A stretch of DNA of 64,000 nucleotides, from positions 37,276 to 101,275 of IMG/VR virus record IMGVR_UViG_3300045988_084534. One strand, 5' to 3'. This document shows, one piece after another, positions 17,978 to 60,003 of the stretch. This DNA is from a virus. Positions within the stretch are counted from its first letter, which is position 1, and each line of letters opens with the position of its first letter. Position numbers and translations under genes: made by a program. The notes under the pieces were generated by a model. That model was given only the letters and a program-made list of their open reading frames with translations, searched no databases and was not told where the DNA came from.

Positions 17978-19386
17978 TGGCAGCACCTGAACCTTCCTCC
18001 ATCATTGAATATCTGACAAACAGCACTGACCTGACAAAGGTCGCAGATGCAATCCGCGCGAAGGGCGGTACAACCGAACAGCTTATCTACCCGGACGGCT
18101 TTGTAACGGCGATTGAGGATATTCCGACTGGCGGCACGCCATCTGAACCGCCTGCGGAGGCGGACATCAACTTTTACGATTACGACGGCACATTACTCTA
18201 CGCGTGGACGCTCGCCGAGCTGGCGGGCAAGACGGCGCTGCCAGACCTGCCGACACGCACGGGGCTGATTTGTCAGGGCTGGAACTGGACGCTGGAAAAC
18301 ATTAAGGCGCAGGGGACACCGATCAATGTCGGCGCGAATTACATCACGGACGACGGCGCGACGCGATTTTATCTGGACATCCCGGAGGGCGGCGTGCTGA
18401 CGATGCCGCTGATGATCGCACAATCGGTATCAGGAGGCGTGACGATCTCATGGGGCGATGGACAGACGGAAACCATCTCCGGCACGGGAAATGTACAGAC
18501 CTCGCACACCTATGCAACGCCCGGCAAGTACACACTCAGTCTCCTGCCAGCAGAGGGCTGTGAAATCAATTTTGGGCATTCTGTTGCCGAGCAGAACGTA
18601 TTCGGAAGCATCAGCAACAATAATCTTGCACTGCAAGCAAATGTGAAAAAAGTGGAGCTAGGGCGTGGATTTTCAGGACTTCGCGCATTCTCGCTCCAGA
18701 ATATGCGGGCGGTAACGTGCATCTCAATGCCTGCCGGAATTACATCCATGAATAGCGCCTGTGTTGCACAGTGTGAAGCGCTGAAAGCGATCGCGCTGCC
18801 AAAAAACCTTACTACACTGGGCGGATCGGTGCTTACTTCGTGCACAAGCCTTGCCGTCGTTGCGGCATCGGACAGCACATATCCAGCGAATAACTTTTTG
18901 AGAGGTGCTTACGCCGCTCATAAGCTCATATTCCGCAAAGCGCTGAAAAGTATCGGAAACCTTGCGTTCCAGAACTGCTATGCTTTGTCTGCGGTGTATG
19001 GGATCGGCAACGTCACAAGCATGGGGAACAATGCTTTCCAAAACTGCCGGAACTTGTGCAATGATCTGCCTGCTCTAAAAATCACAAGCGTTCCGGCGAG
19101 TTGCTTCAGTGGATGCTATTCCCTCAGCAGACTGAGATTCACAGGGGCAATTACCAACATTGCGGCAGGTGCATTCACGAACTGTTATGGCATTATGCTC
19201 TACGACTTTACGGGATGTACCGCCGTGCCGACATTGGCGAACACCAACGCGTTCACGGGTATCAATGCAAATTGTAAAATCCAAGTTCCGGCGTCGTTGG
19301 TGGACGAATGGAAAGCCGCCACGAACTGGGCGACGTATGCAGACTACATCGTGGGTATCGCGCAAGGTGGAGGGAGTGCAAATTAA
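17977..19386 (+). CDS. BspA-type leucine-rich-repeat (LRR_5-like) receptor-binding protein
   Basis: Repeats such as IGNLAFQNCYALSAV..., VTSMGNNAFQNCRNL, ITSVPASCFSGCYSLSRL and ITNIAAGAFTNCYGI. The gene is markedly GC-rich relative to its surroundings. Confidence 0.7.
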   Translation: MAAPEPSSIIEYLTNSTDLTKVADAIRAKGGTTEQLIYPDGFVTAIEDIPTGGTPSEPPAEADINFYDYDGTLLYAWTLAELAGKTALPDLPTRTGLICQGWNWTLENIKAQGTPINVGANYITDDGATRFYLDIPEGGVLTMPLMIAQSVSGGVTISWGDGQTETISGTGNVQTSHTYATPGKYTLSLLPAEGCEINFGHSVAEQNVFGSISNNNLALQANVKKVELGRGFSGLRAFSLQNMRAVTCISMPAGITSMNSACVAQCEALKAIALPKNLTTLGGSVLTSCTSLAVVAASDSTYPANNFLRGAYAAHKLIFRKALKSIGNLAFQNCYALSAVYGIGNVTSMGNNAFQNCRNLCNDLPALKITSVPASCFSGCYSLSRLRFTGAITNIAAGAFTNCYGIMLYDFTGCTAVPTLANTNAFTGINANCKIQVPASLVDEWKAATNWATYADYIVGIAQGGGSAN

Positions 19387-19743
19387 ATGATAATCAGAGA
19401 ACACTACAAAACGCGCAGTGACGGCGTGGAGCTGTATAGGACGTATTCGGACGCAGGTTATCTCATCCGGCAGGTGGAAACCGGCGCGGAATACTCCGAG
19501 GCGATTGATATTGCGGACGCGCCATATACCTACACGGAAACGGACAAGCCGGATGTGAGCGGCATTGAGCCGATCCCCGCAGAGCGCGGCATGGAGTACA
19601 CCTATGGGCAGTATTACGCCGACCCGGAGGACGGCGCGCTGTACCTCTGCGGAGTGCCCGGACAGGAGAGCACAGGGACGGTCGTGCTGGACTATCTGCC
19701 GCATGAGCTAGTTGGACAATATTTCGAGGCGGTGAAGCAATGA
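19387..19743 (+). CDS. Small protein in the GC-rich cassette (possible fibre chaperone)
   Basis: 118-aa ORF directly after the LRR gene, with the same high-GC composition. Confidence 0.45.
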   Translation: MIIREHYKTRSDGVELYRTYSDAGYLIRQVETGAEYSEAIDIADAPYTYTETDKPDVSGIEPIPAERGMEYTYGQYYADPEDGALYLCGVPGQESTGTVVLDYLPHELVGQYFEAVKQ

Positions 19744-20213
19744 ATATACTTGGAGTAAACGGAAAGCCTGTTGTGGTGGGCGGTAAGGTCATTTTGCCGC
19801 CGAGTGGCGTGGACGTGAGATTGAATGCTATTACACCTGAAAGATACCAGTATGTTGAAGATGAGAATAAAGCCACTTTAGATTTGAGTGGATTGATTAC
19901 GGGCAACTATTTTATATGCTTTTTTAGTTTTGAAGGAATACAAAGAATCAATGGGAAATCCGTGGAAATCACTATTTCATTTCAATCTATGGGTTCTAAT
20001 TTTATGGGTGGCGCTATTCGTGGAACAGGTGTGTTTTTCTATCGTGATGGTTCTAATGGAGCTGCATCGATAAACGCTTACTTGGAAAGCGGCAGCGATC
20101 ATGTTTATGATATTTCTAACGACTTTACAACGTTGTTAGATTCTGAAGGTTATATCATGGCAAATTGTAGGATAGATCAAGTGAATGCTTCTTATGTAGT
20201 CAGTTGGAACTAA
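19740..20213 (+). CDS. Hypothetical protein
   Basis: ATGA overlap with the upstream gene. Composition returns to AT-rich. Confidence 0.45.
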   Translation: MNILGVNGKPVVVGGKVILPPSGVDVRLNAITPERYQYVEDENKATLDLSGLITGNYFICFFSFEGIQRINGKSVEITISFQSMGSNFMGGAIRGTGVFFYRDGSNGAASINAYLESGSDHVYDISNDFTTLLDSEGYIMANCRIDQVNASYVVSWN

Positions 20214-23701: not shown

Positions 23702-23932
23702 CTAATCATCCTCTTCATCCATTTCATCATAGGCTGTCATATATCCTATGTCATATCCCATACCATAATTATCTACACAAATAGTCAATAAATCATACCA
23801 CATAGCAACTGTATCTTCTGTTGTTGTCATAGACGTTTCGATAATAGGCTCATCATGTGGGTTGGTCAGGTCAATAAGTTCAATCCATGAGTCATTATCC
23901 GTGATATGTAGAGTAGGGATAATCATAATCAA
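23702..23932 (-). CDS. Hypothetical acidic small protein
   Basis: 76-aa ORF that overlaps the dut stop. Confidence 0.45.
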   Translation of the reverse strand: MIMIIPTLHITDNDSWIELIDLTNPHDEPIIETSMTTTEDTVAMWYDLLTICVDNYGMGYDIGYMTAYDEMDEEDD

Positions 23933-24387
23933 GTACCAGTAGAGCCAAAGCCGTTTGAGCCGCGCTCAGTAGAATCTAGCTCATCTACTTCAATGATTTC
24001 TATATCATAATAATTTAGTAGAGTAAATTGGGCGATTCTATCACCTTGACGGACAATTCGTGGCGTATCGCTATCATTATATAGAGGCACTAGCCATTCG
24101 CCTGTATACTGCTCATCAATCACGGCTACACAGTTAGCTGGTCTTAGCCCCTGTTTAGTAGCAAGCCCAGAGCGGGCAAATACAGCCGCCCAATAGCCAT
24201 GAGGGATATTAGTGGCAAATCCGGCTGGGATTTTTACTGTACTATGAGGCTCAATGACCACTGTATCAAAATACATAGATTGAACATCGGCATAAATATC
24301 GAAGCAAGCATCTGTGGGATGACTTTTTTGTGGTAGTTTGGCGGTATTTGATAGTCGCTTAATTTTTAATTCAAGCATTGGCATCAT
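23929..24387 (-). CDS. dut: dUTP pyrophosphatase
   Basis: Motifs ARSGLATKQGL, VIDEQYTGEW, GDRIAQ and C-terminal RGSNGFGSTG. Confidence 0.85.
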   Translation of the reverse strand: MMPMLELKIKRLSNTAKLPQKSHPTDACFDIYADVQSMYFDTVVIEPHSTVKIPAGFATNIPHGYWAAVFARSGLATKQGLRPANCVAVIDEQYTGEWLVPLYNDSDTPRIVRQGDRIAQFTLLNYYDIEIIEVDELDSTERGSNGFGSTGT

Positions 24388-25509: not shown

Positions 25510-25926
25510 TTATTCACATTTTGTCCAGCCACATGACTTACAAATTTTGCAACCGCCCTCAAACATAACGGGTTCACCGCATTCAGGGCATACCTCTGTT
25601 GAAATTGTGGCTAGTGCATTGCTCAACTTTTTAATGCTGTCTGTTGCTTTATTAGTAGCCTCTCTTAGATTCTTAGTCACATTAACCACATCATCCTCTT
25701 TATCATCTAGTTCACTCTGCATCTCATTATACATATCTACTAGAGCATTACCAATAGCCATAGGACAACAAGACCCCTTACTGGTATCATGGTGAGTTGC
25801 CTTGCGAGTAGCATAAGATGGGCATACACCAGTTGAATCAAGCTGGTCTTTGATGGTCATAATATCCACACCAGCGCGGCATAGTAGACTGACCATGCGG
25901 CTTAGACCTGTCATGAAATTTGCACA
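25510..25926 (-). CDS. nrdJ: Class II (B12-dependent) ribonucleotide reductase, C-extein
   Basis: Starts with the +1 Cys, CANFMTGLSRMVSLLCRAGV. The C-terminal zinc ribbon is CPECG...CKICKSCG. Confidence 0.85.
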   Translation of the reverse strand, partial: CANFMTGLSRMVSLLCRAGVDIMTIKDQLDSTGVCPSYATRKATHHDTSKGSCCPMAIGNALVDMYNEMQSELDDKEDDVVNVTKNLREATNKATDSIKKLSNALATISTEVCPECGEPVMFEGGCKICKSCGWTKCE

Positions 25927-26886
25927 ATTTCCAGTAATAAAGATTTTACCATTACGACGCAACACAAGCAAACCGCTTGGAACTGTAAAACAATAAGATT
26001 TGCCGTCGATTGGTTTATAATCTTCAATAGTTGCAGTTGATAAGCCATGTACGTTTTGGGTTGTCCAACGCACTCTATAACTATCTTGAATATTTTGTGT
26101 TCCGTTGTTCAATGAAATTGTAGCTCTAAAACCAAGCCTTGTCAATGCAAACTGGATAAAATCAGCTTCGTGCTTTTTTGACGTATAATAAGAACCAAGT
26201 CGGTTTCCTTCGCCAACAGAGCCATCCCAATATACACACTCATCCACAATACATTTTAATTGCTCATCATTACAAGCATACCATTTTGGTGTAAATTGCT
26301 TGTCAATAAACCATTGTTTAACACTTGGAATTGGATGAATATAAAACACGGTATATTCGGTATTGTTGATGTTTTTTTCAGTCCATCCAATATCACAATT
26401 TGTTAGTAGTTGACGAATACGAATTTTCTTTCTATCTTTTTTTACGTTAATAACAATTTTATTTCCATCAAATGTACCATCCGCATAAATTGCAACAAGT
26501 AGTCTAATTATCTCATTACTAAGCGGAATACCATTTGTATTCATAGAGAAGGTGGTTGGAATATGACGATTTTTAGAACCAGCCATGAAATCTTTTACAG
26601 TAATAATTTCATGGGTTAATTTGCTTCTAATTCCAGACATATATTTTGCATAATTTTTATACAAATACATTCTATGATCTTCTGAAAGAACCATATCCAA
26701 TCCAGTTGTATTGTGGAAATATTTCATATTCTCAACATTGTCATTAACAACGTAAGAAATTGGATAGGTTAAAGAAGCCGTTCCATCTTCATTGTACTGC
26801 AACACTTGTTCATACTCATCCATATTATATTCGCTAATTTTTTTCCACTCGATACCATTAAAATATTCAGTATCTTTGTCTACGCA
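25927..26886 (-). mobile_element. Intein (320 aa) with LAGLIDADG homing-endonuclease domain inside nrdJ
   Basis: Begins with Cys (CVDKDTEY) directly after extein ...KGSTGG and ends ...LVLRRNGKIFITGN before Cys+1. Has a block B-like SEDH. LAGLIDADG-type motifs are LLVAIYADGTF and ECVYWDGSVG. Removing it restores KGSTGG-CANF. Confidence 0.85.
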
Positions 26887-28034
26887 TCCACCAGTCGAGC
26901 CTTTATTGAAATATACCTCTTGTAGATTGCCGTCAATGGGGTCAAAGAATGCTAGAACATGAAGTGAGCCGCATCCTGTCTGGATTTTGCGCTTTTTGCC
27001 AATCAGGTCATTGCTTGGTTCAATGATTGAGCCGCGAGGTAGAATGGGGGATGTGGATTCAGGCTTGGTTTCATTATCTTTCTTATTGTCAGTAAGCAAG
27101 ATTCCCTGACGGATTGCATTAGGTCTAAAGATTGTACATCCCTTAATGCCTAGCTTCCAGCACTGCATATAGATGTCCTTGACTTCATCAAACGATGCTT
27201 CAGTAGGCACATTGATTGTCTTGCTAACGCTCATGTCGGTATATTTGCTGATAATAGCAAGCATAGCTACATGGTCATCGACAGACATATTAAGCGCAGT
27301 TGGGAAAATATCATGCTCGTCAAAATCAAGTTGCTCACCCTTATCCTTTAGCTTATGATAGAGATAATAAGCATAATCCATCATCTTGACGATTTTTACG
27401 TCCTTATCGTCCTGACCCCCAATTTTTACCTTGCGGTCATAGCTAAGAGAGAAGATTGGCTCAATGCCACTAGAGCAGTTGTTACCAAATACCATAGAGA
27501 TCGTGCCGCACGGTGCAACCGCTTGAATCTTGGCGTTACGAATACCATATTCAGCCATCTCGGCAATGACATCATGTTCTAGCACAGATTTGACATATGT
27601 GTTATCTGCGTGTTTATCTGGCTCACATAGAGGGAAACAGCCCTTTTCTTTAGCAAGCTGAACTGACGCATAATATTCTGCATTAGTAATCATCTGCATT
27701 AGAGATTCAACATAATCTCTTGCTTCCTGACTATCATACTTCATGCCAAGCATAGCCAGCATATCTGCTAAACCAGTAATGCCAATACCAATGGTGCGCA
27801 TACTCTTCTGATAATTTTCGTAAATCTTGTCAGGGAATTTATTTACATCAATAATATCATCAAGCATACGGACTGCAATAGAGATTGTATTTCTTAGAGC
27901 ATCAGTATCAAGATGTGCTTGCTTGGTAAATGGATTCTTTACAAAATTGTGTAGGAACAATGAGCCAAGATTACAAGCACCGCCATATTGCGATGGGTCT
28001 GTTGCATTGATTGTTCCTGCTAGATATTCAGCGC
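26887..28034 (-). CDS. nrdJ: Class II ribonucleotide reductase, exon 2 / N-extein part
   Basis: Spliced junction reads NP-C-AEYLAGTINATDPSQYGGACNLGSLFL. Followed by RTIGIGITGLADML, APCGTIS and SKTINVP. Confidence 0.85.
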
Positions 28035-28204
28035 CTCACACAATGCGTATCAAATACAGTTCGCATCGTGCGCTAGACTATCGCATCCCCTTGGGGTCTC
28101 CTCGCTTAGTCGTTCAGGCTGGCATTACCCTTGCCCCCTGTAGCTGTGTATTCAGCGTCCAAGTCAATCAGAGGAGATTTTACATCCGCACGTTTATATG
28201 GCTA
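28035..28204 (-). mobile_element. Compact (about 170 nt) ORF-less group I intron in nrdJ
   Basis: P1: exon AUCCGU pairs with intron GCGGAU (28184-28189), with U.G at the splice site. P3 is UCUCCUC/GAGGAGA, P7 is GACUA/UAGUC, P8 is the hairpin ACCCCAAGGGGA, and the terminal nt is G. Splicing creates the catalytic NPC codon (ccg u|gc). Confidence 0.8.
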
Positions 28205-29027
28205 ACGGATTACTACAAACAATTCTTTCTACATACCATGCAGGATTGCGATTATTGGCATTATCCTCATAGAATACGCCCGGTTCACCATTATCATATG
28301 CCATCTGCATGATTTCGTTCCAAATATCACGAGCTGGCACTAGCTTGGTAAATTGCTTATCCCACTTATCTGGCGGCAGTTTATTGCCCTTCTCGTCATA
28401 GATAGGCCAATGTAGTTTAACTTGACCATTCTCAATGACAAGATTCATAAAAGCATCATCTACAACAACAGATAGGTTGAAATGATTTAGCCGTCCTTCT
28501 GTAGCTGATTTAGCATGAATAAATTCAAGAATGTCAGGATGATATACACTGAGCATACCCATGTTTGCACCGCGCCTTGAACCTTGCTGCACAGTAGCCG
28601 TCTGAGCATTAAATACATCCATGAAACTAACTGGACCAGATGCAATAGCATCATTACGGGTTCTATAACCATTAGGCGCTAGATTGCTAAAAGCATAACC
28701 AATTCCGCCACCAGCTTTATGTGTCATAGCGCCTAGCTTAACCGCATTAAAAATCTGCTCCATGCTATTACCAATAATAGGTGCTACAAAGCAGTTATTG
28801 AGAGTTAGCTTTTCGCCAATACCGGCATTGCTCATGGTGCGTCCAGCAGGGAAGAAATAGCCTTCTTTCATAATACTGAAGAATCTATCTGCCCATTTAG
28901 GCGCGTTCCAATTTCCTTCGGCGGATGCTACAAAATCAGCTACACGCCATAGCTGGTTATCATATGACTCACCGTCCTTTTGGTATCTATCTTTCCAGAT
29001 AGATTCATATACCTCATTTACAAACAA
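28205..29027 (-). CDS. nrdJ: Class II ribonucleotide reductase, exon 1
   Basis: TTG start after AGGAGG. Motifs GRTMSNAG, LNNCFV, GGGIGYAFSNL, RRGANMG and ...VCSNP. The tracked stop at 28194 lies inside the intron. Confidence 0.85.
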
Positions 29028-30369: not shown

Positions 30370-31182
30370 TTAATCATCATCTCCTTTAGACCATCTGTTG
30401 TTATATTTAGTAATTTGATAATTTACTTGATTTTCAATATTTTTATTTTCGCAATCAATATCTTCTGGATAATTTAAGTAGGCAAATTCCCCATGCTCGT
30501 GATATGCAGCAATATCGTAGGCGTGTGCAGCTTCCTCTGGCGTTTCCCATCTACCAAGATAAACATTTTTCCCTTTTATCCTACAAAATGCAGAATACTT
30601 TTCGTCTGTTTTAGATACTCCCTTTAAGCCGATTTTATTTCTTTTATTTGGAGCAATATTTATATTGTTTTGTCGCGGAGTGCATTTCCTCATATTTTCT
30701 CTGCGATTATCGCCTTTATTTAGATTTCTATGATCGTAATACGCCCCAAATAAAAACCTATGTAATCGCATACGCATTCGTTTGCCATCCGACAAATACC
30801 AATATCCAGAATCTTTTTCTTTTCCAATATGTGCAAATTTTAATCTATCAAGATTATCCGCATCAACAATAGTGTAATCGGACATATCATCGAGATAAAT
30901 TTTTACATAATCTCCTTCTATTTCATAATGATTAAAAGGTTTCTTTCTTGCTTTAGAAATATATTCGCTTCTGGCGCATCCGCATGATTTGCAACTTCCA
31001 CTTCTTAATAATGCAAGCGTAAGAGTCCTAATTGTTTTATTTTCGCAATCGCATTGACAAATAACTCTGCGTTGGTAGCATTTCTTATTCCTTGTTTTAG
31101 AAAAATATTCTTTTGGCTCTGTTTCGTCTATGACTGTCCAGTGTGAATATTTATTGCCTATGACATCAAGTTTTTCAGCCAA
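30370..31182 (-). CDS. Free-standing HNH endonuclease with C-terminal AP2 DNA-binding domain
   Basis: HNH motif DHRNLNKGDNRRENMRKCTPRQN. AP2-like segment YSAFCRIKGKNVYLGRWETPEEAAHAYDIAAYHEHGEFAYLN. The N-terminal Cys module (C.C.CENK...SCKSCGC) is shared with the polB-intron HNH. Confidence 0.75.
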   Translation of the reverse strand: MAEKLDVIGNKYSHWTVIDETEPKEYFSKTRNKKCYQRRVICQCDCENKTIRTLTLALLRSGSCKSCGCARSEYISKARKKPFNHYEIEGDYVKIYLDDMSDYTIVDADNLDRLKFAHIGKEKDSGYWYLSDGKRMRMRLHRFLFGAYYDHRNLNKGDNRRENMRKCTPRQNNINIAPNKRNKIGLKGVSKTDEKYSAFCRIKGKNVYLGRWETPEEAAHAYDIAAYHEHGEFAYLNYPEDIDCENKNIENQVNYQITKYNNRWSKGDDD

Positions 31183-33306: not shown

Positions 33307-34002
33307 TTATCCCTTATATTTGAACAATTTTTCTACTTTCTTTGGTTGATTGGATTTATTGTAGTCAAGTGTTCTCGTTAATTCTTGCGACCAAATACAT
33401 TCAAAATCATCTGGCGAAGATTCCTCGCTGATATATACATTACATCTCTTAGATAGCTGACACATATAATCCCAAAATTCATTCGTGTCAAATTGCCCAA
33501 CTGTATATCCTGTCGTATTAGCATAAGGCGGATCACAATATACAACTGCGCCATCTGGAATTTCTACGTCATGGTAGTCAAGGCAAGTAAATGTAGCAGA
33601 TTGTACTCCGGGTAAATCTTTAAGCAAACTGCGTTCTGCTCTTGCACAATAATTATCACCTCTCTTATTGCTTGCCAGACCGCCCCACCATTTGCCGCCA
33701 AATGAGCAACCAAAGCCAACAAATCCAGTCAATGCAGGATTTTCGTCCATATTAGCTTTAACACGATAATCTTCTTCTTTAGTTACAACATCAGGCGGCA
33801 TCCAACCATTTTGTAATGCTTGCCACATAGCAATAAGATATGGATGTTTGTCATTGAGAATTTTAACATCTGCTTGCACTTTTGATTCAATAGCGCATGA
33901 ACCACAGAACAGACTTACAAACGATGTGTTTTTACCGATAGCTGAATTTAATACCTCTGCAATTTGTTTAGAAATGCGGCTTTTGCCACCCATATATCGC
34001 AT
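33307..34002 (-). CDS. dam: DNA N6-adenine methyltransferase (Dam/D12 class)
   Basis: N-terminal MGGKSR and catalytic CDPPYANTTGY. Confidence 0.8.
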   Translation of the reverse strand: MRYMGGKSRISKQIAEVLNSAIGKNTSFVSLFCGSCAIESKVQADVKILNDKHPYLIAMWQALQNGWMPPDVVTKEEDYRVKANMDENPALTGFVGFGCSFGGKWWGGLASNKRGDNYCARAERSLLKDLPGVQSATFTCLDYHDVEIPDGAVVYCDPPYANTTGYTVGQFDTNEFWDYMCQLSKRCNVYISEESSPDDFECIWSQELTRTLDYNKSNQPKKVEKLFKYKG

Positions 34003-34262: not shown

Positions 34263-34511
34263 TTATGATTCCCTCCAAGCGTCATAGATTTCAATGGCTG
34301 GTTCATAGCCTTCAGTGCTGATAATAAGCTCCCGATGAAGGTCGAGACTCAAATTGACAAGTTGCTTCAAAGAATTGATATGAATATACGTTCTGATATT
34401 TTTGCACTTATCCTGCTTTTCATCCAATTCATATTCATTGAGCACGGGATAATTCTTTCTAAGGTCATTAAGCGTGGGGTAATAGTCAGTTTGATGAATC
34501 CAGATTTTCAT
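34263..34511 (-). CDS. Hypothetical protein
   Basis: 82-aa ORF preceded by CAGGAGG, downstream of promoter 34545-34573. Confidence 0.45.
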   Translation of the reverse strand: MKIWIHQTDYYPTLNDLRKNYPVLNEYELDEKQDKCKNIRTYIHINSLKQLVNLSLDLHRELIISTEGYEPAIEIYDAWRES

Positions 34512-34544
34512 AATTAAAACAACCTCCTGTTCTTTGATAAATCA

Positions 34545-34573
34545 AGTATATCATAGAATCAGGAGGTTGTCAA
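34545..34573 (-). promoter_or_regulatory. Sigma-70-type promoter (TTGACA-17-TATACT)
   Basis: On the - strand: aTTGACAacctcctgattctatgaTATACT. Confidence 0.65.
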
Positions 34574-34586
34574 TACCCTATTTTAA

Positions 34587-34841
34587 TTATTTTTCAATCA
34601 TTTTCTTTAATTCTGCAAATAGCTCTCTACCGCAAATAGGGCAAGTAGAATCAATGTCAACTACATATTTTTCATCTACCATTAAGCCGCAATTTGGGCA
34701 TTTAATAGGCGCATATTTTAGTGGATGTTCAGTCCGTTTGCGGCGATTTCTTTCTGCTCTGCTCAATTTCTTCCTTCTCCTTATATTTTGCTCTGTATTC
34801 ATTTCGCTTGGTTTCATCACCATCATTCCACCATTTGACAT
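34587..34841 (-). CDS. Basic zinc-ribbon protein (start uncertain; overlaps the upstream gene in another frame)
   Basis: RRRKKLSRAERNRRKR...CPNCG...CPICG. Overlaps the 3' end of 34729..35826 by 74-113 nt, depending on which Met is used. Confidence 0.4.
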   Translation of the reverse strand: MSNGGMMVMKPSEMNTEQNIRRRKKLSRAERNRRKRTEHPLKYAPIKCPNCGLMVDEKYVVDIDSTCPICGRELFAELKKMIEK

Positions 34842-35826
34842 TGATATAATCTAATACCTTAGCCATACCAAGTCCCTTATCAGGAATCCACATGCCAGTT
34901 TGTTCATCATATTTGCCACCGCGCATACAATAATCATAAAGTTGTGGGTGGGTTTGAGCAAGAATTTGAAATTTATTAGGATGCTCAAGATGACAGCCAT
35001 AACCGCAGAACACGCACCCAGTTCGCTTCTGTTTGGTTGTTGTATACACGCCACCCTCACATACAATATCCCCGTACACGGCGGAACAATATGGCACATT
35101 GAACTTTAGCAAATATTTAAGTACGTCGGATTTAGACCAAAAGGAGAGTGGCTTTGAAGAAGGTCTATCACCATCAAAAGCATTACATCCTGTCCGCAAC
35201 CAAGCAGTCTTTCTTGTGGTTGACTCTTGAGCCATCGTTCCAATAAAAGGATGGTAGTTAGTCTGTTTCTCATAAATTTTTGCCGGGTGCTTTTTCATAA
35301 TGTAACAACACTGGTTTGCTAATGGTATGTCACCATTTGTTAGATATTTCCATTTAATATTTCCCTGTCGAAAAGGATTTATCGTTCCGTCTGGATTAAC
35401 GCCGTTCATTTTGTCGATACCGTATTGACTGCCGTTTTTTGCTGAATATACAGCATAAGACAACTCCTTACTAATCAATGGGTATCCATACCGTGTGATA
35501 ACTTCGGGAAATGTAATATGCTCATACTGCCGAGATTTACGGTTATATACAGACGGCTTGAGGACGATAACATTTGACTTACTCATAATGAACTCACGCA
35601 GTTCAGGATATTCCAAACCAGTATCGCAATATACGTCCACCACATCAGGATATATGCGATGCACAAGATGGCTCAGTACGGTGCTATCTACACCACCACT
35701 ATTACTGATATACACCTTCCCATCCCAATGTTCATACCATTCAATAATTCTAGCCGTACTAATTTGGATTTTTTCTTCAAGAGATTTAGATTGCAGCTCT
35801 TTCAAATCTTCCTTTGTATGGTTCAT
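34729..35826 (-). CDS. PAPS-reductase-family PP-loop ATP pyrophosphatase (DndC/SspD/IbrA-like) with Cys-rich C-terminal region
   Basis: PP-loop SNSGGVDSTV, CCYIMKKHP, QESTTRK, and the C-terminal cluster GCVFCGYGCH. Confidence 0.7.
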   Translation of the reverse strand: MNHTKEDLKELQSKSLEEKIQISTARIIEWYEHWDGKVYISNSGGVDSTVLSHLVHRIYPDVVDVYCDTGLEYPELREFIMSKSNVIVLKPSVYNRKSRQYEHITFPEVITRYGYPLISKELSYAVYSAKNGSQYGIDKMNGVNPDGTINPFRQGNIKWKYLTNGDIPLANQCCYIMKKHPAKIYEKQTNYHPFIGTMAQESTTRKTAWLRTGCNAFDGDRPSSKPLSFWSKSDVLKYLLKFNVPYCSAVYGDIVCEGGVYTTTKQKRTGCVFCGYGCHLEHPNKFQILAQTHPQLYDYCMRGGKYDEQTGMWIPDKGLGMAKVLDYINVKWWNDGDETKRNEYRAKYKEKEEIEQSRKKSPQTD

Positions 35827-36920
35827 CTTACGAATTTCTCCTTATACTCAACCACAGCATTTATAAATGCATCAATATCACGTTCTGTTGTTTCATCACC
35901 AAATGACACTCTAACAACACGGCTTGCCTCATCATTGGTTAAGCCGCAAGCATTGAGCACTCTAAAATCATGTAGACTAGAACAAGCAGAGCCGCCAATT
36001 CCAATATATATCTGCTTAGATGCTAGATACTGTTGCAAGCTATCAGCGTTAATATCATCAAATATAATGGCATTGATAGCAAATACGCTATGTGCTGGTT
36101 CATTTGCATCTGACTTATCTGGTTTTAACACATTATTGATAACAGCTCCATGAATATCATTATCAGTGAATTTATCAAGCATATATCGGTATAGCTCATA
36201 TGCTCTTGCCTCATGTTTCTCTGCGTTCTTACAAGTATCCTCAGTAGCATCAGCCATAGCCATAGCACCAGCTAGATTAGGTGTGCCATGCAGTTTGAAA
36301 TCGCCTAGCCATTTGTCTAGTCTATCTGAAATCCAAGCACATCCAATACCAAGCTCCGTTGCAATCTTATGCCCAGAAAAACAATAAAAATCGCACCAAT
36401 CATCAATGTTTGGTTCAATGGGTGTGTGTCCAACTTGAGCCGTTCCATCACAGATATAAAACCCATTATGCTTATGAACAAGCTCTCCAATCTGCTTAGT
36501 TGGAAAAATTTCACCTGTGATATTTTGAACGGCTTGCCATAATACAAATAGCGTATCAAATCTGCTTGAAAATTCATCATGAATAGACAACGACTTGTCC
36601 AATAAGCCTACATTATTAACCACGCCTGTTTCATATTTAAAGAAGCTATCATGTTCATAAGCAGAGCAAATGACACTATAAAAAGAAGCAGTCTGGCTTC
36701 TAATAGCATTCATCAAATTCTCAATCAACTGGCTACTTGTGCCGCCAAATACAACCTTACCACTCTTTGCGCCAATAGCTGCCTTTACTCTATTTGCACA
36801 ATCATCAAGCAATTTCTGTTCCTTATAGGCATAGTTGGCATTAGGATTAAGAAATTGACCATATTTACTACATGGATATTTGATGAATGGATTAGTTGCG
36901 GCGTAATCAAGATAAATCAA
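35823..36920 (-). CDS. Class V aminotransferase-fold cysteine desulfurase (NifS/IscS/DndA-like)
   Basis: LDYAATNP, PLP-Lys motif FSGHK, HGTPN and active-site loop GGSACSS. Overlaps both neighbours by 4 nt. Confidence 0.75.
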   Translation of the reverse strand: MIYLDYAATNPFIKYPCSKYGQFLNPNANYAYKEQKLLDDCANRVKAAIGAKSGKVVFGGTSSQLIENLMNAIRSQTASFYSVICSAYEHDSFFKYETGVVNNVGLLDKSLSIHDEFSSRFDTLFVLWQAVQNITGEIFPTKQIGELVHKHNGFYICDGTAQVGHTPIEPNIDDWCDFYCFSGHKIATELGIGCAWISDRLDKWLGDFKLHGTPNLAGAMAMADATEDTCKNAEKHEARAYELYRYMLDKFTDNDIHGAVINNVLKPDKSDANEPAHSVFAINAIIFDDINADSLQQYLASKQIYIGIGGSACSSLHDFRVLNACGLTNDEASRVVRVSFGDETTERDIDAFINAVVEYKEKFVR

Positions 36921-38545
36921 TTAAAATATTCACTCCAATCATATTCATTTTCTTTTGGTTTATCAATAATTTCATATCTCTCAATAATGGCTTGAGGCTT
37001 AATCTGTCCATTATATTCATTCAATCCAAGCGATACTACTACTTCTATGGATTTGCCTTGAGCAGATTCAAATTGACTTGCTTCTTCATTACTAACAAAG
37101 AATTTGATGAACTCAATGTCGTCCTGAACTAGCTTAACGGTAGTTGAACGATTACGATATACATAAATCTGCGGAGATGTTAAAGTACAATGGAATAACG
37201 GCTTGCTTACATCTTTAGCCCATAGGATATTATTTTCTACACACACATTTGCAAGATTGCGTGTGATATTATTAGGCTCGATTTGAGTCGCTACTTCAAT
37301 ATCTGGCTCTACGTCCAAATCAAGTCCATCTAAGAATCGCGCAAATCGCTTGAGGTTTGATTTCTTGACGGTGATACCAGCTGCGGCATCATGCCCTTGA
37401 CATTTAGCTAATCCTGATTCATTGATAATCTCAAGTAAATCAATGGGGCTACGCATCGAGCCAGACCATGTTGTGCTATTTAGCTCTCTCAGCAGGAATG
37501 TAGGCTTATTATATTTACCACAGAATTTATTGGCTACAAGCCCTAAATAGGATTTATTCTCAGGTTCGCCAAAGCCTATAATAACCTTATGAGATGTGTC
37601 AAGCCCATCTGACAGCTTATCTACGACCTTCTTGACTTGATAATCCTGCTTGGACTTGACGGCTTTCATAGCCTTTATAGCGGCTTCTGGCTCAATTTTG
37701 CCAATCAGCGTATCAAAGAATAACCGCTTAGTAGACTGGTCATCGCTACGAGCCAGCGCATTAGCAAGAGGCGCAATGCCAAATGCCACACCCTCTGGAT
37801 TAACGCCACGATTGCAACAATGCTCTAAGCAGTATTTAATAAATGGATTGGTTGGATTCGTCAAGCCGTCATATACATATTTGCGGTTCTCAAGTGAACG
37901 TAAGCTGCAAATATCAGATATTAGACTAACTGCCACTAGGTCTTTGAAAGATTGATTTGAGCCAAGCGCACAAGCAAATTTTTCTACAACGCCTGTACCA
38001 CTAATATCTATATTACAAGTATATGTGACCTTAACACCATTATAGATGCGTTCAACTAGCTCAAGTTGGTCATCTGGCATTGGTGGAATAATAACACTAT
38101 TATATGGATTGACTACAACGGCGTATTTATTTTCCCTTTTTGCAACAAATTCAATGATATGGTGGTCTAAGATAATAACCTTGATACCATGTTCATATAG
38201 TTCTCTACAAGCATCAACCTCATTCGACCCAGCATCAGGGATAATAAGCGTCTTTACATTTGCGGCAATAATATCAGATAATAGGTCACTACAACCATGC
38301 TGTTTGCCGGTGTGAAAAAACATAATCGGCTCGATGCTTGGATGATATTCTTTACATAGCATGTAGGCAATAGCAGCCGAACAAGCCCCATCGAGGTCGG
38401 AATCAACAACAATGCCAATATTACCAGTAATATGATTAAACATATCAACAGCTACATCCATATTCTTATACATATCAGGCGATTGATATTCAATACTATC
38501 TGGATTTAGATATGCGTCAACATCAGTTAATTGGCAAGCGGCCAA
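36917..38545 (-). CDS. DHH-family phosphoesterase / RecJ-like ssDNA exonuclease
   Basis: Motifs VVDSDLDGACS, IIPDAGS, IILDHH and QGHDAAAG. Confidence 0.7.
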   Translation of the reverse strand: MAACQLTDVDAYLNPDSIEYQSPDMYKNMDVAVDMFNHITGNIGIVVDSDLDGACSAAIAYMLCKEYHPSIEPIMFFHTGKQHGCSDLLSDIIAANVKTLIIPDAGSNEVDACRELYEHGIKVIILDHHIIEFVAKRENKYAVVVNPYNSVIIPPMPDDQLELVERIYNGVKVTYTCNIDISGTGVVEKFACALGSNQSFKDLVAVSLISDICSLRSLENRKYVYDGLTNPTNPFIKYCLEHCCNRGVNPEGVAFGIAPLANALARSDDQSTKRLFFDTLIGKIEPEAAIKAMKAVKSKQDYQVKKVVDKLSDGLDTSHKVIIGFGEPENKSYLGLVANKFCGKYNKPTFLLRELNSTTWSGSMRSPIDLLEIINESGLAKCQGHDAAAGITVKKSNLKRFARFLDGLDLDVEPDIEVATQIEPNNITRNLANVCVENNILWAKDVSKPLFHCTLTSPQIYVYRNRSTTVKLVQDDIEFIKFFVSNEEASQFESAQGKSIEVVVSLGLNEYNGQIKPQAIIERYEIIDKPKENEYDWSEYFN

Positions 38546-38597
38546 ATATTCCCTTAAAAATGTGGCTTCATTAAGGGAATCTAGTAGTGGATGAATC

Positions 38598-38834
38598 TTA
38601 ATCTAAATCACCATCCTTTTTTGGCAAGTTGATGTATGCCCACTGGTCATCATCATATATTGTAGATTGATCGTAATCATATAAGCATTCCCATACATCA
38701 CAATTATATTCATCTACAACCCTTTTCATAATAAACATGACTTCTTCTGGATATGTTTCTCCGCATTTACACGCTACCAAAACAGGAATATTATATGGTG
38801 GCAATCCCTCACTTGTCCTATTCCATTCAATCAT
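38598..38834 (-). CDS. DUF551-like small protein (paralog family)
   Basis: MIEWNRTSEGLPPYNIPVLV...WAYINLPKKDG. Confidence 0.55.
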   Translation of the reverse strand: MIEWNRTSEGLPPYNIPVLVACKCGETYPEEVMFIMKRVVDEYNCDVWECLYDYDQSTIYDDDQWAYINLPKKDGDLD

Positions 38835-39472: not shown

Positions 39473-40087
39473 TCAACCTCCTCGATTTAACATTGCTTTT
39501 TCTTTTGCGCTCAATCGCCATGTTGGTGTATATTCAGTGCAAAGATGCGTTCCCTTGATTTTCTTAACGTATATTAACTTAATCTCTGTATCTAACCTCT
39601 TTGATTTATTTTGCATACCATTATGTGTCTTTGTACTACCCTTTGTTTGTCCTACATATTCCCAATTATCAGCTTTATACATACATCCTTTTCTTGTTTC
39701 GTTCTCAATGACAAATGTTTCAAATCCATGAACACGCACATGATACTGCGCTTCCCAATCTGCGGCGATTTGTTTGCGCCACATAGCTAAAATTTGCGTA
39801 CCAAGATTAGGCAAGTTCTTTTCCAACCGAAATACAGTATTGTTAATAATTGAGTTAAGCGCGACCCTCTTATTTTCTTTTGTCAAGCCGAAATAATCAT
39901 CTCTGGCTTTTACAGCATATACAGCAGATGCACCAGAAATAATCCCAACTGTCTCGCCATCCAATTTTATAAGATAATGAATTTGCTGACCAAATGTGCC
40001 ATGATTCGGTATATAATGTCTATCTCTAATTTCTTGATATTCTGGATTACTACGTTTACATCTTATCAGCTCTACATTATATTTCAT
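39473..40087 (-). CDS. DUF4338-like protein (the domain also found in Druantia DruA)
   Basis: HYL...G..VG...ASAVYAVKARDDYFG...NNTVFRL...NLGTQILAMW....DW...Y......ETFV.....G..YKADNW.YVGQTKG matches my recollection of the DUF4338 signature. Confidence 0.45.
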   Translation of the reverse strand: MKYNVELIRCKRSNPEYQEIRDRHYIPNHGTFGQQIHYLIKLDGETVGIISGASAVYAVKARDDYFGLTKENKRVALNSIINNTVFRLEKNLPNLGTQILAMWRKQIAADWEAQYHVRVHGFETFVIENETRKGCMYKADNWEYVGQTKGSTKTHNGMQNKSKRLDTEIKLIYVKKIKGTHLCTEYTPTWRLSAKEKAMLNRGG

Positions 40088-40125: not shown

Positions 40126-40154
40126 ATTATATCATAAAGGAGGCTGATTGTCAA
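40126..40154 (-). promoter_or_regulatory. Sigma-70-type promoter (TTGACA-17-TATAAT)
   Basis: On the - strand: cTTGACAatcagcctcctttatgaTATAAT. Confidence 0.7.
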
Positions 40155-47787: not shown

Positions 47788-47988
47788 TTAATCCTCCTCT
47801 AATTTTACACAATATTCTGATTCATAAAATATACAATCTTCACAATTAAATGTATTGTAGCAACACTCTTTGCAATTCTTTGGCACATCATATCCCATAT
47901 CACTATACCAATCATATTGACTATCAAGCGCAATCGGGCAATGCCCGGTCACACATTCATTTGCACAGAATCCTTTACATTTCTTCAT
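47788..47988 (-). CDS. Cys-rich small protein
   Basis: 66 aa with 12 Cys residues. Confidence 0.4.
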   Translation of the reverse strand: MKKCKGFCANECVTGHCPIALDSQYDWYSDMGYDVPKNCKECCYNTFNCEDCIFYESEYCVKLEED

Positions 47989-49436
47989 GCTTCTTCCACA
48001 CTTTCATCTCCTGATACGTTTCAGATAATGTCACCCATTCGCCATTTTCGTCTTTTTTCATTTTGTTTTTCTCTTGCAATACTACCCTTGCTACATCACC
48101 CTTTTGTAATTGATGGTTCGTCCAGAATTTCTTACTAGCTCTATATGTGCGTTCTGCCCCATAACAAATATTGTATAGTGTGCAATAAACCGTACCGTAT
48201 CCTGTTGTCTTGACATCTAGCACTAACCAGTCATTAGAGTCTGAATTGGGGTCACTGCAATCTACATATCCTAATAGCTCAATCTGCCATTTCAGCTTAT
48301 CAGCAATAGTTGTCTTAGGCATTTTCATTGAGCGCAGGATTGATAAGATGATGCCGCGATTATCAAGCTGACTAGCTGTTTTCTCTGTTAGCTTACCAGT
48401 ATACGGCGTAAGCATATCTACATTATAACCCATTTTAGCCCATTTGTCAAGTTTAATTGTCTTACATTTTGAAAAATTTTTATATATATCAATGCCAATT
48501 AGCAATGCTTTAGCAGAACCATAGCAATCAAGATAGCCCAACTTAATCAATTTATCAAGTTGCGAATAACCGCATTTTAGATTGGGCAAATCATCAAGTA
48601 AATCGAGGAATGATGGATATGGCTTTTCTTTACCAATCAATTCTATCTCATTCTTGATTTCGTTATCTACACCCTTGATTTCATTCTTAACCTTAGATTG
48701 ACCTCTGCCTGTTAAGAAATCGTTAAGACGCTTATTGGCTTCATCAATATAATATTGCTTATCAAGATAATCTGGTACTTTTACGCCTATGACGTTCTCG
48801 TTATAGATAAAGCATCTATCAGCAGTTCCAGCCATCTTTTCAGGATTGCCACCATCTTTTACCTTGAATACACCAGCATCCGATTCTCTTGTAGATGCAA
48901 ATACGCGTAATACGCGCTCTCTTAAAACCGTGTCGCCGTGCATAGAATGGACATATGAACCGCCTATTTTGACAATCTTCTGAAATTCAATCAGGTCATT
49001 ACAGTTGTTGATTGTATCTTCAATGGGTGTACCTGAGATGAAATAAGAATTGAGGGCTTTGTTAAGAATAGGCAGGTCATAATCAACCTTGCTCAATTTC
49101 TTTACATACGCGCCTTTGCTTTTCGGACCATCCTCTTCAACTAAGATATAGTTATTTACATCCTTTTGCCAGATAGCTGAAGCATAATCAAATTCAAGAG
49201 ATAGCCGCACCCTCTTTTCCCAATCGTGCATGATTTGCTCAACAATCGGTTCATTTGCTTCATCCTCAAAATAGACATATACACCATCTGTGTTAGACTG
49301 AATCAATTTACAGTATGGCTCAATTTTCTCAATCAAGTCAAGCAACAATAGCTGACCTGTTACACAGACACACCGGCACATTCTTGGATCGTATAGTGGA
49401 TTGTGTTCATCACCAGATGCCCCGTAAGTCGAATTT
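47975..49436 (-). CDS. Family B DNA polymerase, exon 2
   Basis: The spliced junction gives motif B KIVL-NSTYGA. Motif C is SNTDGVYV. The frame is open back to 49436. Confidence 0.85.
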
Positions 49437-49542
49437 CCTTAATACCCATGATTTACCATTTACATGAGAGTAGACTATATCATCAAGTTCACCGCTTCCA
49501 TCGTCGTGCCAATAGACGATGTACTCCCGTAAGGGATAGTCG

Positions 49543-50046
49543 TTACACTTTATTCTTATAGTAATCGGCGCATTTTCTTTGGGTTTTATTTTTCTGTTGC
49601 TCTTGAATGGTTATCCACCTGCAATTATCAGGTTCATAATTTCCATCATTGTTTATTCTATCTATGGTTAATCCTTCACGATAACCAGATATTCTTGACC
49701 ACTCGTAGAAATTTTCAAATTTATACCATTCTTTACAAATTGAAATTCCTCTACCGCCATATCTTTGATAATGTTTGTCATTTGGATTATTTACTCTATT
49801 TTTCATAGATGCCCAAACATGATATAGCTTGGTTTTAGATTGATTATGAGTAATAATGGCGTGATCAAATTGCAAGCAACCGCAACTTTTAACAGTTCCA
49901 TTTTTAAGACAATCTGATCTAACTTTACATTTATTACCACATTCGCATACACAGTTCCAGTAACTATGCTTTTTATCCATATGCGAAAAATCTTGTACTG
50001 TCAATCTTCCAAAAACCTGTCCAGAAATATCAATTCGTTTCCCCAA
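49543..50046 (-). CDS. Intron-encoded HNH homing endonuclease
   Basis: C.CECGNKC...SCGC zinc module, YGGRGISICKEW, and HNH tail IDRINNDGNYEPDNCRWITIQEQQKN. Confidence 0.8.
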   Translation of the reverse strand: MGKRIDISGQVFGRLTVQDFSHMDKKHSYWNCVCECGNKCKVRSDCLKNGTVKSCGCLQFDHAIITHNQSKTKLYHVWASMKNRVNNPNDKHYQRYGGRGISICKEWYKFENFYEWSRISGYREGLTIDRINNDGNYEPDNCRWITIQEQQKNKTQRKCADYYKNKV

Positions 50047-50126
50047 AACATTTACACCGACTTTCCAAAAATCTTAGCACGGGATTGCCCTAAAATAGTG
50101 GAGGGTGTTCCCCGTTAGCACTTATT

Positions 50127-50155
50127 ATTATATCACATTTTCAATAAAATGTCAA
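50127..50155 (-). promoter_or_regulatory. Sigma-70-type promoter inside the polB intron, upstream of the HNH ORF
   Basis: On the - strand: aTTGACAttttattgaaaatgtgaTATAAT. Confidence 0.6.
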
Positions 50156-50215
50156 TACTTTTAAGCACACCTTTGGCAAAGTTCAATGAATTTTTTAATT
50201 GACCCCAATTCGTTA

Positions 50216-51189
50216 AGGACAATTTTATACGGCTTCTGCATTGGATTCTTTTCTTTCTTTAGCTTTAGGCGCGTATCTCTAATCTGCCTATACAAATCAG
50301 GGTCTTTAACATTACGACTGAGCAATCCATACTCAATCATAATGGATGGGTATAGAGATGCCACGTCAGCACATAGAATCTTGCCTTTGTATTGGAAATT
50401 ATCGATGCACCCATGTATGCCGCCCCAACCAATGACATGTGGAATACCGGCTATTGTGGTATATAACGATTTATCTACTCTATGATTCTTTGGGTCTTGA
50501 AACCATTCTAGCACATATCTATATTTATCCAGAATCAATGTATCAGGATAAATAATGTCAAATTCATCATCGTGCTTTTGCTTGACTGCACCTAGAATTT
50601 TAGCGACAAGCTGCGCCTTTGTTCTATTGAAATCCTCAAGCGGTAAATTGAACGCCTCAATCAATGATGCTTGGCTATCAAATTCCTCATGCTTTGCGTC
50701 GAACACCTCAATGGTCTGCTCAACATCATGGGTACAGTAATATATTGTCTGCTCAAGTTCATCTCTAGTCAACGGATGGTCAATAGTAAAATCAATATCA
50801 GACTCTTTGATTTGCTGACCCATAAAACCCTCAAATTGCTTAAGGCTATGGAATTTATCACTAATGTCAAAATTAAGCAAAGGATATTGCTCTTTTTGTT
50901 CCTTGGTTAAAATTTGATGCTCTTTCAATCCTTTGTTAATTAGAGCATCGTTCACTTCATATGCGTTTTTGCCACACAATAGTGATTTAAGCAACGGCGC
51001 ATCATAATTTCTTGAATTATAGCCAACCCATATATAGCCTAGCTTATTACATTTTTCATATACTTGCCGCAATCGGTCTACATCATTATGTATGATACAT
51101 TTACGCTTTGAGGTGTAGTCGATTAGCACAACTAACCAATCGTATCTAAACACCTCAAAGTCATAGAACATTAGTTTATAGTTCATCAC
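50216..51189 (-). CDS. Family B DNA polymerase, exon 1 (exonuclease domain plus motif A)
   Basis: ExoI is FYDFEVF, ExoII is GYNSRNYDAPLL, ExoIII is YCTHDVEQT and motif A is CADVASLYPSIM. The tracked tail ...ELGSIKKF... is intron sequence. Confidence 0.85.
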
Positions 51190-57313: not shown

Positions 57314-57342
57314 ATCATTCAGCTCCTTCAGTTGATGGTTTA

Positions 57343-57371
57343 AGTATAACACCATAGTGAAGATTTGTCAA
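57343..57371 (-). promoter_or_regulatory. Sigma-70-type promoter (TTGACA-17-TATACT)
   Basis: On the - strand: cTTGACAaatcttcactatggtgtTATACT. Confidence 0.65.
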
Positions 57372-59913: not shown

Positions 59914-60003
59914 TGGTCTTCCCGGCTGGGTACGATCCAGCACATGCCTTGTGAGGGTCTTACTCTTATAAGGAGTAGGCTTTTCCAATTAAGCTACGGG
60001 AAG
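59914..60003 (-). tRNA. Atypical tRNA, anticodon UAU (Ile/AUA) with a 19-nt variable region and a non-canonical T-loop
   Basis: Acceptor stem CUUCCCG/CGGGAAG followed by ACCA, D arm GCUU-AAUUGGAA-AAGC, anticodon arm UACUC-CUUAUAA-GAGUA, variable region AGACCCUCACAAGGCAUGU, and T arm GCUGG-AUCGUAC-CCAGC. Confidence 0.6.

Follow-up and report, generated by a model that had tools for sequence, protein, structure and literature searches.

Do a cysteine desulfurase and a PAPS-reductase-fold protein, encoded side by side by an uncultured gut phage, serve sulfur metabolism, or do they place sulfur in the DNA of the phage? The question is raised by a stretch of 64,000 nucleotides of the IMG/VR record IMGVR_UViG_3300045988_084534 (positions 37,276 to 101,275), here called the window, from a phage of about 100 kb. 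The two genes and their products, referred to as CD (cysteine desulfurase) and PAPS (PAPS-reductase-fold protein), are both located on the minus strand (Table 1). A preliminary description of the window had recognized them as a NifS/IscS-like gene overlapping a PAPS-reductase-family gene by four nucleotides, and had likened them to the DndA/DndC and SspA/SspD pairs of DNA phosphorothioation systems. Both open reading frames (ORFs) are present, and their motifs and profile matches agree with this assignment. The pair probably inserts sulfur into phage DNA rather than serving sulfur metabolism. That it forms a reduced phage DndA/DndC-like (SspA/SspD-like) DNA sulfur-modification and anti-restriction module is the explanation that we tentatively favor, with a likelihood somewhat short of even.

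The cysteine desulfurase

CD aligns end to end with Escherichia coli IscS (residues 2–356) with a sequence identity of about 25%, and contains the motifs LDYAATNP, FSGHK, and GGSACSS. Lys185 is in register with the lysine that binds pyridoxal 5'-phosphate (PLP), and Cys313 with the persulfide cysteine, which is embedded in GGSACSS in CD and in SGSACTS in IscS. His90, Asp158, and Arg337 are also aligned, and the PLP lysine, the SxSAC(S/T)S-type cysteine loop, and the His/Asp/Arg set that characterize group-I cysteine desulfurases are all in place. The catalytic residues are kept in 12 of the 12 phage homologues compared. It is probable that CD is catalytically active, because all of its catalytic residues are intact and conserved.

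CD belongs to a phage-specific lineage. The NifS/IscS profiles score about 82 bits on CD, against equivalog cut-offs of 304–643 bits, and the DndA profile TIGR03235 scores 52.8 against 480 bits, below an equivalog-level match. The PADLOC models of SspA (3e-30) and DndA (1e-29), which carry no curated cut-off, do match the protein, and the PDB structures of DndA (3vax) and SspA (6m4j) match it with 28 bits, more weakly than IscS with 53 bits. The relative closest to CD in a set of 185,579 representative genomes shares 28% identity with it, and a GTDB scan with CD as the probe returned only housekeeping desulfurases, at identities of up to 28%, and no prophage relative. Cultured phages contribute only 13 CD records, with identities of 24–32%. 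The largest CD subgroup, represented by locus L097 (357 residues, about 75% identity; L numbers denote loci of other phages throughout), dominates the matches of CD searches.

The PAPS-reductase-fold protein

PAPS contains the motifs SGGVDS, CCYIMKKHP, and GCVFCGYGC, and its match to phrog_424, which covers residues 8–313, places it in a widespread phage family that is usually annotated as the metabolic gene "cysH". Clustered at 50% identity, the family forms 524 groups (E ≤ 1e-30), and phage homologues with identities of 25–45% occur in Ruminococcus, Clostridium, Enterobacter, and Vibrio phages. In alignments of 25 and 30 sequences, SxSGGxDS, DTGLE, Cys173-Cys174, Cys214, Cys271xxCys274, and Cys300 are invariant. 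The PP-loop is intact, with Ser41, Ser43, Gly44, Gly45, Asp47, and Ser48 unchanged in both alignments, whereas the positions of E. coli CysH aligned to SGGVDS read SFGIQA. The double cysteine of PAPS aligns with the cluster-binding double cysteine of Mycobacterium tuberculosis APS reductase. Residues 121–160 are hypervariable, with a column identity of 0.25–0.32, as opposed to 0.6–0.9 elsewhere in the protein.

The structure of PAPS, predicted by AlphaFold2 with a pLDDT of 92.6, has the PAPS-reductase fold. The best Foldseek matches are the CysH and APS reductase structures 6vpu, 2goy, and 1sur, with E values of 1e-7 to 1e-6 and TM-scores to the target of 0.55–0.60, followed by FAD synthase, GMP synthase, TtuA, and LarE. 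When structures of DndC, SspD, or TdpC were looked for in the PDB with the single sequence, with a profile, and with Foldseek, only CysH/APS reductase, CysD, and these four lower-ranking enzymes were identified, and a structure search of the BFVD retrieved generic phage PAPS reductases only.

CysH and APS reductase carry the C-terminal catalytic motif ECGLH, which is absent from the PAPS sequence. The corresponding profiles score far below their cut-offs (NF002537, 40.9 vs 154 bits; TIGR00434, 28.6 vs 165.1 bits; TIGR02055, 22 vs 235 bits). IbrA (COG3969) has a C-terminal DUF3440 domain and is encoded next to, or fused with, the ParB-like IbrB; PAPS_reduct is the sole Pfam match of PAPS, and the scan of the neighbors revealed no ParB domain. 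As the tests with the DndC, SspD, BrxP, and CysH profiles all failed, PAPS constitutes a phage branch of its own within the PAPS-reductase superfamily. Its motifs suggest an Fe-S enzyme that uses ATP, and not a sulfate-assimilation reductase.

Linkage of the two genes across phages

The ATG of PAPS overlaps the stop codon of CD as ATGA and is preceded by the Shine-Dalgarno sequence AAGGAG, an arrangement that indicates translational coupling of the two genes. The window belongs to a clade of phages that is common in gut metagenomes, on contigs of 85–110 kb. The gene order RecJ-CD-PAPS-Znr of the window, where Znr is a zinc-ribbon gene, is also found in L004, L008, L094–L096, L098–L100, and L119. 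A blastn search of positions 34500–38600 against 50,697 phage records returned no match.

CD and PAPS are found paired again in no fewer than five other gene settings, where the CDs are only 22–36% identical to that of the window. In L012/L013, the order is Dam, one small ORF, CD, PAPS, two ORFs, and RecJ. The pair in L014 has a four-nucleotide overlap and lies near a gene for Pol III alpha, L016 has one ORF between CD and PAPS, L117 and L128 contain CD-PAPS, and L124 has the reversed order PAPS-CD. A phage contig of about 100 kb (L010/L011, positions 3903–8299) encodes an RNA ligase, three tandem PAPS paralogs that are 52–57% identical to each other, and a CD of 408 residues. Among 16 IMG/VR contigs with a PAPS subclade distinguished by a KWWNDGDE tail, CD is adjacent or one gene away in 9 of the 13 that could be assessed. 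The gene that follows CD-PAPS in L012 (7037–7444) starts with a CxxC...CxxC zinc-ribbon-like motif, and its sequence is unrelated to that of the zinc ribbon of the window.

Evidence for DNA as the probable target

The surroundings of PAPS genes were analyzed in 80 IMG/VR loci of the family. The most common neighbors within 3 kb of PAPS are DNA methyltransferases of the N6_N4 (17 loci), C5 (15 loci), and D12 (6 loci) types, together with Mom-family genes (6 loci), and 30 of the 80 loci have a methyltransferase or Mom gene within this distance. At distances of up to 3 kb from PAPS, DNA methyltransferase and Mom genes number 0.104 per kb, about five times the 0.020 per kb counted at 3–6 kb. In five loci (L059, L068, L069, L071, and L090), Mom, PAPS, and an N6_N4 methyltransferase are directly adjacent, and the trio looks like a recurrent three-enzyme DNA-modification cassette of other phages. 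The operon of the window itself opens with a gene of the DruA/Mom superfamily, and Dam is encoded in the transcription unit that follows. The DruA-like protein showed no pairwise similarity to the Mom proteins that adjoin PAPS in other phages, to which it is related at the profile level only.

Two members of the PAPS family contain an N-terminal helix-turn-helix DNA-binding domain. The three PAPS paralogs of L010 share 69–75% identity in the PP-loop domain, but only about 20% in residues 121–165, a pattern of the hypervariable segment that would be expected for a target-recognition element. The neighborhoods, the helix-turn-helix domains, and the hypervariability constitute circumstantial evidence that points to DNA as the target.

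Proposed mechanism and alternative explanations

The reduced DNA sulfur-modification module would function in the following manner. CD, with PLP bound to Lys185, would strip sulfur from L-cysteine and hold it as a persulfide on Cys313. It would then pass the sulfur to the co-translated PAPS, or build a [4Fe-4S] cluster in PAPS, or both; the candidate cluster ligands are Cys173, Cys174, Cys271, and Cys274, and Cys214 is a candidate persulfide acceptor. The PP-loop of PAPS would use ATP to adenylate the target, after which sulfur would replace the activated oxygen. The likeliest target is phage DNA and the likeliest product a backbone phosphorothioate, which would shield the genome from host restriction. 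The hypervariable helical segment of residues 121–160 may set the target preference. In a broader and less probable form of the proposal, which we regard as possible, a dedicated CD and a single Fe-S adenylating enzyme of the PAPS fold would make up a self-sufficient system for DNA sulfur modification in many phages of the gut and rumen, with the hypervariable insert providing specificity and no DndD/E, SspB/C, or BrxC partner.

Several observations weigh against the module. No DndC model from NCBIfam or PADLOC matches PAPS at E ≤ 0.01, and the SspD (1.3e-7, residues 40–103) and BrxP (5.8e-8, residues 25–77) profiles match only its N-terminal PP-loop region. A tblastn search of plasmids with PAPS found no gene annotated as DndC, the long matches being to generic "PAPS reductase family" proteins at 24–27% identity. 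The preliminary description had seen no DndD/E or SspB/C partners, and a comparison of 15 neighboring proteins with PADLOC bore this out, with no match to DndB/D/E, SspB/C/E, or BrxC. Neither the operon nor the neighbors scanned contain a DndD/E, SspB/C, or BrxC-type ATPase or DNA-recognition partner. Phage-made phosphorothioate has not been demonstrated in the literature searched.

The distribution of the two genes also counts against the module. Within the wider PAPS family, CD is found within 6 kb in only 4 of the 80 IMG/VR loci, so that about 95% of the loci have no phage CD nearby, and PAPS homologues of cultured phages stand alone, several of them adjoining terminase or portal genes. The content of the slot between RecJ and Znr varies among phages with RecD and DnaB that are 90–97% identical. 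L097 has CD only (RecJ-CD-Znr), L005 has CD and a homing endonuclease with no PAPS in the slot (RecJ-CD-HNH-Znr), the more distant L007 contains CD-HNH and likewise no PAPS in the slot, and L015, L122, L123, and L127 have PAPS only (RecJ-PAPS-Znr). The HNH gene of L005 and L007 occupies the exact position that PAPS has in the window. The CD-only genomes were judged on about 17 kb of contig, and a motif scan for PAPS gave no match in them, but also missed L006, which carries the gene. In L006, CD is kept, and a glutamine codon of PAPS is changed from CAA to the nonsense codon TAA (9689–9691), with the neighboring genes intact; a pseudogene, a sequencing error, and read-through are possible interpretations. 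A joint function of the pair does not account for the CD-only state, and the coupling of the two genes is real but facultative, not obligate.

Split PAPS ORFs were also observed in L035 and L079. Related HNH/AP2-like homing endonucleases are scattered in the clade, with examples in the window (Table 1), L005 (9212–9850), and L007 (9212–9916).

The variable slot is the basis of the alternative that survives best, which we nevertheless consider unlikely: that CD is a general supply gene of this clade for sulfur or Fe-S clusters, which might enhance tRNA thiolation or Fe-S assembly of the infected host, that PAPS in most phages uses the IscS or SufS of the host, and that the adjacency of the two genes reflects a shared hotspot. 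The common occurrence of CD without PAPS (the L097 subgroup, L005, and L007), the presence of PAPS without CD on near-identical backbones, and the scarcity of CD near members of the wider PAPS family are all in line with this explanation. The partitioning of host IscS between Fe-S assembly and TusA/tRNA thiolation alters lambda infection through frameshifting (PMC3296357), and DndA itself is replaceable by housekeeping desulfurases (PMC10853773). However, CD and PAPS are adjacent outside the slot as well, in unrelated contexts, with CDs of 22–36% identity, with either gene coming first, and once next to three PAPS copies, and the CD stop overlaps the PAPS start. Furthermore, as CD is rare in cultured phages, it would hardly have come to lie beside the same family several times by chance.

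Even if the two proteins cooperate, their product might be a thiolated nucleobase. A PP-loop enzyme may adenylate a carbonyl oxygen and exchange it for sulfur, as ThiI, MnmA, TtcA, and TtuA do, with DNA, the pool of deoxynucleoside mono- or triphosphates, or tRNA as the substrate. The intact PP-loop, Fe-S-type cysteines, and dedicated CD are also typical of thiolases of the TtuA/TtcA type, TtuA and LarE are among the structural matches of PAPS (E of about 2e-4 to 1e-3), the phage encodes two tRNAs, and in L010 a gene for an RNA ligase lies ahead of the tandem PAPS copies. Nevertheless, in fold and motifs PAPS is nearest to the PAPS/APS-reductase branch (CysH, APS reductase, CysD, and FAD synthase), the members of which act on sulfate or phosphate adenylates, and is more distant from the tRNA thiolases, and its neighborhood is enriched in genes for the modification of DNA, not of tRNA. 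Base thiolation is a rather improbable outcome.

It is improbable that PAPS counters host defense without marking DNA, either by hijacking or blocking Dnd, Ssp, or BREX-4 or by consuming a nucleotide or sulfur intermediate, with CD only maturing its Fe-S cluster. The anti-Dnd effect of a Vibrio phage locus, described below, is purely genetic and was seen in a host with a full Dnd system; family members occur in Aca-regulated anti-defense operons (PMC13551039); and no target-recognition partner was found beside the pair. Against this, the invariant catalytic motifs argue for enzyme turnover, the hypervariable segment and the tandem paralogs are easier to reconcile with a range of substrate specificities than with one target in the host, and the methyltransferase and Mom genes nearby suggest that DNA is marked.

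Finally, the standard virome annotation (PMC13369170; bioRxiv 10.64898/2026.02.18.706556), in which PAPS would be a cysH that converts PAPS or APS to sulfite and CD an iscS for cysteine catabolism or Fe-S assembly, both boosting the sulfur metabolism of the host, agrees with the CysH-like fold and with rumen viromes, where iscS and cysH were present on more viral contigs than any other metabolic genes (PMC5704599), but is very improbable given the CysH profile scores far under their cut-offs, the PP-loop that is intact in PAPS and degenerate in CysH, the missing ECGLH motif, the position of both genes inside a replication and DNA-modification module, and the failure to find cysC/D/N/I/J genes in the window.

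The intact PP-loop, the coupled dedicated CD, and the placement among methyltransferase and Mom genes argue that at least this branch consists of sulfur-inserting nucleic-acid enzymes. Few viral auxiliary metabolic genes are reported as often as the phage "PAPS reductase", which has widely been read as a sign of sulfur assimilation in bee, infant-gut, rumen, and marine viromes. If the sulfur-modification module is real, the metabolic annotation of a large class of viral genes would have to be revised, with the common viral "cysH" being an anti-restriction DNA-modification enzyme. The module would also represent the first phage-encoded phosphorothioation, or a new DNA thio-modification, adding sulfur to the DNA-modification chemistries of phages, and would provide a compact two-gene system for the study or engineering of DNA thiolation.

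Operon organization and other features of the window

CD and PAPS are part of a tightly packed row of minus-strand genes that spans 34.5–40.2 kb. The probable operon consists of eight genes, in the order DruA/Mom-like, orf121, orf88, orf78, RecJ, CD, PAPS, and zinc ribbon, and is bracketed by two predicted promoters; the second of these precedes the transcription unit orf82, orf86, Dam, and RecD. The DruA (DUF4338)/Mom-superfamily gene, which directly follows the perfect sigma-70-like promoter, is 98% conserved in L127 and is also present in L097. It may encode a second DNA-hypermodification enzyme of the phage.

The RecJ-like gene, which the preliminary description had placed upstream in the same operon, encodes DHH, DHHA1, and RecJ_OB domains, and its stop codon overlaps the TTG start of CD as TTGA. 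The gene was found in relatives whatever their CD or PAPS content, and RecJ is therefore probably not part of the sulfur module. A role of RecJ as a phosphatase of 3'-phosphoadenosine 5'-phosphate, tied to PAPS chemistry, was ruled out, as the protein has the full length of RecJ, including the OB domain, and is encoded irrespective of CD and PAPS.

The basic zinc-ribbon protein reported downstream is present as the last gene of the operon. However, the 84-residue ORF is probably too long, and the most likely start is the TTG at 34766, which gives 59 residues, is preceded by a GGAG-rich sequence, and agrees with the gene calls of relatives. The gene is about 90% conserved and is always in the same position in the relatives compared, in the presence or absence of PAPS. 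The 3' end of PAPS and the 5' end of the zinc-ribbon gene share 38 nucleotides in different frames, so that the conserved charged tail of PAPS (KEKEEIEQSRKK...) and the basic N-terminus of the zinc ribbon are encoded by the same DNA.

The Dam methylase noted nearby was identified as a D12-class enzyme. A ThyX-like gene, which had also been proposed, could not be confirmed, as the signature RHRxxS is absent from every ORF of at least 80 residues; the nucleotide-metabolism genes identified in the vicinity encode a dUTPase and a split class II-type ribonucleotide reductase. The two parts of the reductase are separated by a gap of about 230 nucleotides, and in some relatives (L097 and L100) the enzyme is encoded by one ORF of about 780–810 residues. 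The DNA polymerase gene is split by an ORF for an HNH endonuclease, which suggests an intron or intein-type insertion.

The GC content peaks at 0.52 inside a block of plus-strand genes, compared with about 0.39 elsewhere, and the GC skew changes sign near 23–24 kb, at the switch of the coding strand. Judged by DnaB, phages of Enterocloster bolteae are the closest relatives in culture, at 35% identity, and our guess is that the host is a gut member of the Clostridia.

Table 1. Positions of the genes and other features discussed, in window coordinates
Feature	Position	Strand	Basis
CD, group-I (IscS/NifS-like) PLP-dependent cysteine desulfurase, 365 residues, TTG start	35823–36920	-	Aminotran_5 2e-27; IscS alignment
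PAPS, PAPS-reductase-fold PP-loop ATP pyrophosphatase, 365 residues, probable [4Fe-4S] site	34729–35826	-	PAPS_reduct 2.6e-15; phrog_424 1.4e-42
Zinc-ribbon protein, 59 residues, basic N-terminus, C4 (CPNC...CPIC), last gene of the operon	34587–34766	-	weak zinc-ribbon Pfam matches
Overlap of PAPS 3' end and zinc-ribbon 5' end	34729–34766	-	
RecJ-like DHH/DHHA1/RecJ_OB single-stranded DNA exonuclease, upstream of CD in the same operon	36917–38545	-	TIGR00644 7e-60
DruA/Mom-superfamily protein, 204 residues, first gene of the operon	39473–40087	-	Pfam DruA 2.4e-21; weak Mom 0.0074; PHROG "Mom-like DNA modification protein" 1.4e-5
Sigma-70-like consensus promoter, 12/12 plus extended -10 TG, upstream of DruA-like gene, probable operon start	40126–40154	-	pattern match only
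Sigma-70-like promoter, 11/12 plus TG, directly after zinc-ribbon stop, start of next unit	34545–34573	-	pattern match only
Dam, D12-class N6-adenine DNA methyltransferase, next transcription unit, downstream	33307–34002	-	profile match
HNH/AP2-like homing endonuclease	30370–31182	-	
Class II-type ribonucleotide reductase, split	28194–29027 and 25510–27960	-	
dUTPase	23929–24387		
GC peak	18001–20000		
DNA polymerase, split (whole region 47975–51189)	50161–51189 and 47975–49381	-	
HNH endonuclease ORF within the DNA polymerase gene	49543–50046	-	
Tyrosine recombinase/integrase	56477–57355	-	Phage_integrase 1e-32
tRNA-Leu(UAA)	58581–58664	-	
tRNA-Ile(UAU)	59914–60003	-	

Comparison with known systems

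The housekeeping desulfurases IscS and NifS align with CD over the full length and share its catalytic residues, but the identity of about 25% and the score of 82 bits, against cut-offs of 304–643, set CD apart from them. Similarly, CysH and APS reductase are the best structural matches of PAPS (6vpu and 2goy, TM-score to the target of about 0.6), and the CC...CxxC arrangement of PAPS resembles the Fe-S site of APS reductase. PAPS differs from CysH in its intact PP-loop, about 130 extra residues, the absence of ECGLH, and the low profile scores.

In the Dnd system, DndA desulfurates cysteine, assembles the Fe-S cluster of DndC, and donates the sulfur (PMC8569181, PMC10853773). The CD-PAPS pair likewise combines a NifS/IscS-type desulfurase with a PP-loop ATP pyrophosphatase that has candidate Fe-S cysteines, and the desulfurase is linked in the manner of DndA, as PAPS overlaps a group-I CD by four nucleotides and the linkage recurs in other phages. 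The facultative presence of CD is reminiscent of DndA, which is often replaced by housekeeping IscS (PMC10853773). Unlike DndC, the PAPS of the window has no DndC profile match and is not accompanied by DndB, DndD, and DndE genes; it is a phage protein of 365 residues, encoded in a replication operon, that has a hypervariable insert and ends in a conserved domain of its own.

The best PADLOC model of CD is SspA, and the PP-loop of PAPS matches SspD and BrxP of the Ssp and BREX-4 systems, over about 50–65 residues only and not over the full length. The window differs in having no SspB, SspC, BrxC ATPase, or DUF4007. An NTPase is needed in the minimal sets of these systems, which are SspBCD, or BrxP together with BrxC (PMC12914056). 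In contrast, An et al. 2025, as cited in PMC12914056, reportedly found that TdpC by itself suffices to form phosphorothioates, with adenylated DNA as an intermediate, which shows a pathway without DndD/E to be possible. By this description, TdpC is, like PAPS, a single PAPS-reductase-type enzyme. Tdp is, however, a restriction-modification system of thermophilic bacteria, not a phage module, and the account in PMC12914056 mentions no dedicated desulfurase.

Among phages, a two-gene locus of a Vibrio phage, in which one gene is a PAPS-Dam fusion, confers resistance to the Dnd of the host (Piel et al. 2022; bioRxiv 10.1101/2021.05.05.442762). Like the locus in the window, it links a phage-encoded PAPS-reductase-domain protein to Dam, and related Vibrio phage proteins are about 32% identical to PAPS over 70% of its length. 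It differs in the fusion to Dam and in the absence of a phage cysteine desulfurase, and the two genes were transferred together in the experiment. Phage PAPS reductases also occur in Aca-regulated anti-defense operons (PMC13551039; 2026). In the literature searched, the phage CD-PAPS module has not been described as a DndA/DndC-like unit, and the gut-phage paper of Benler (2021) mentions neither gene.

The analogy to DndA/DndC and SspA/SspD drawn in the preliminary description does not extend to the DndC and SspD profiles, which PAPS fails, or to an obligate coupling of the genes. It stands as the best available reading of the recurrent pairing, the DNA-modification clusters, and the TdpC and anti-Dnd precedents, and phosphorothioation would be the chemically closest precedent for the activity of the module.

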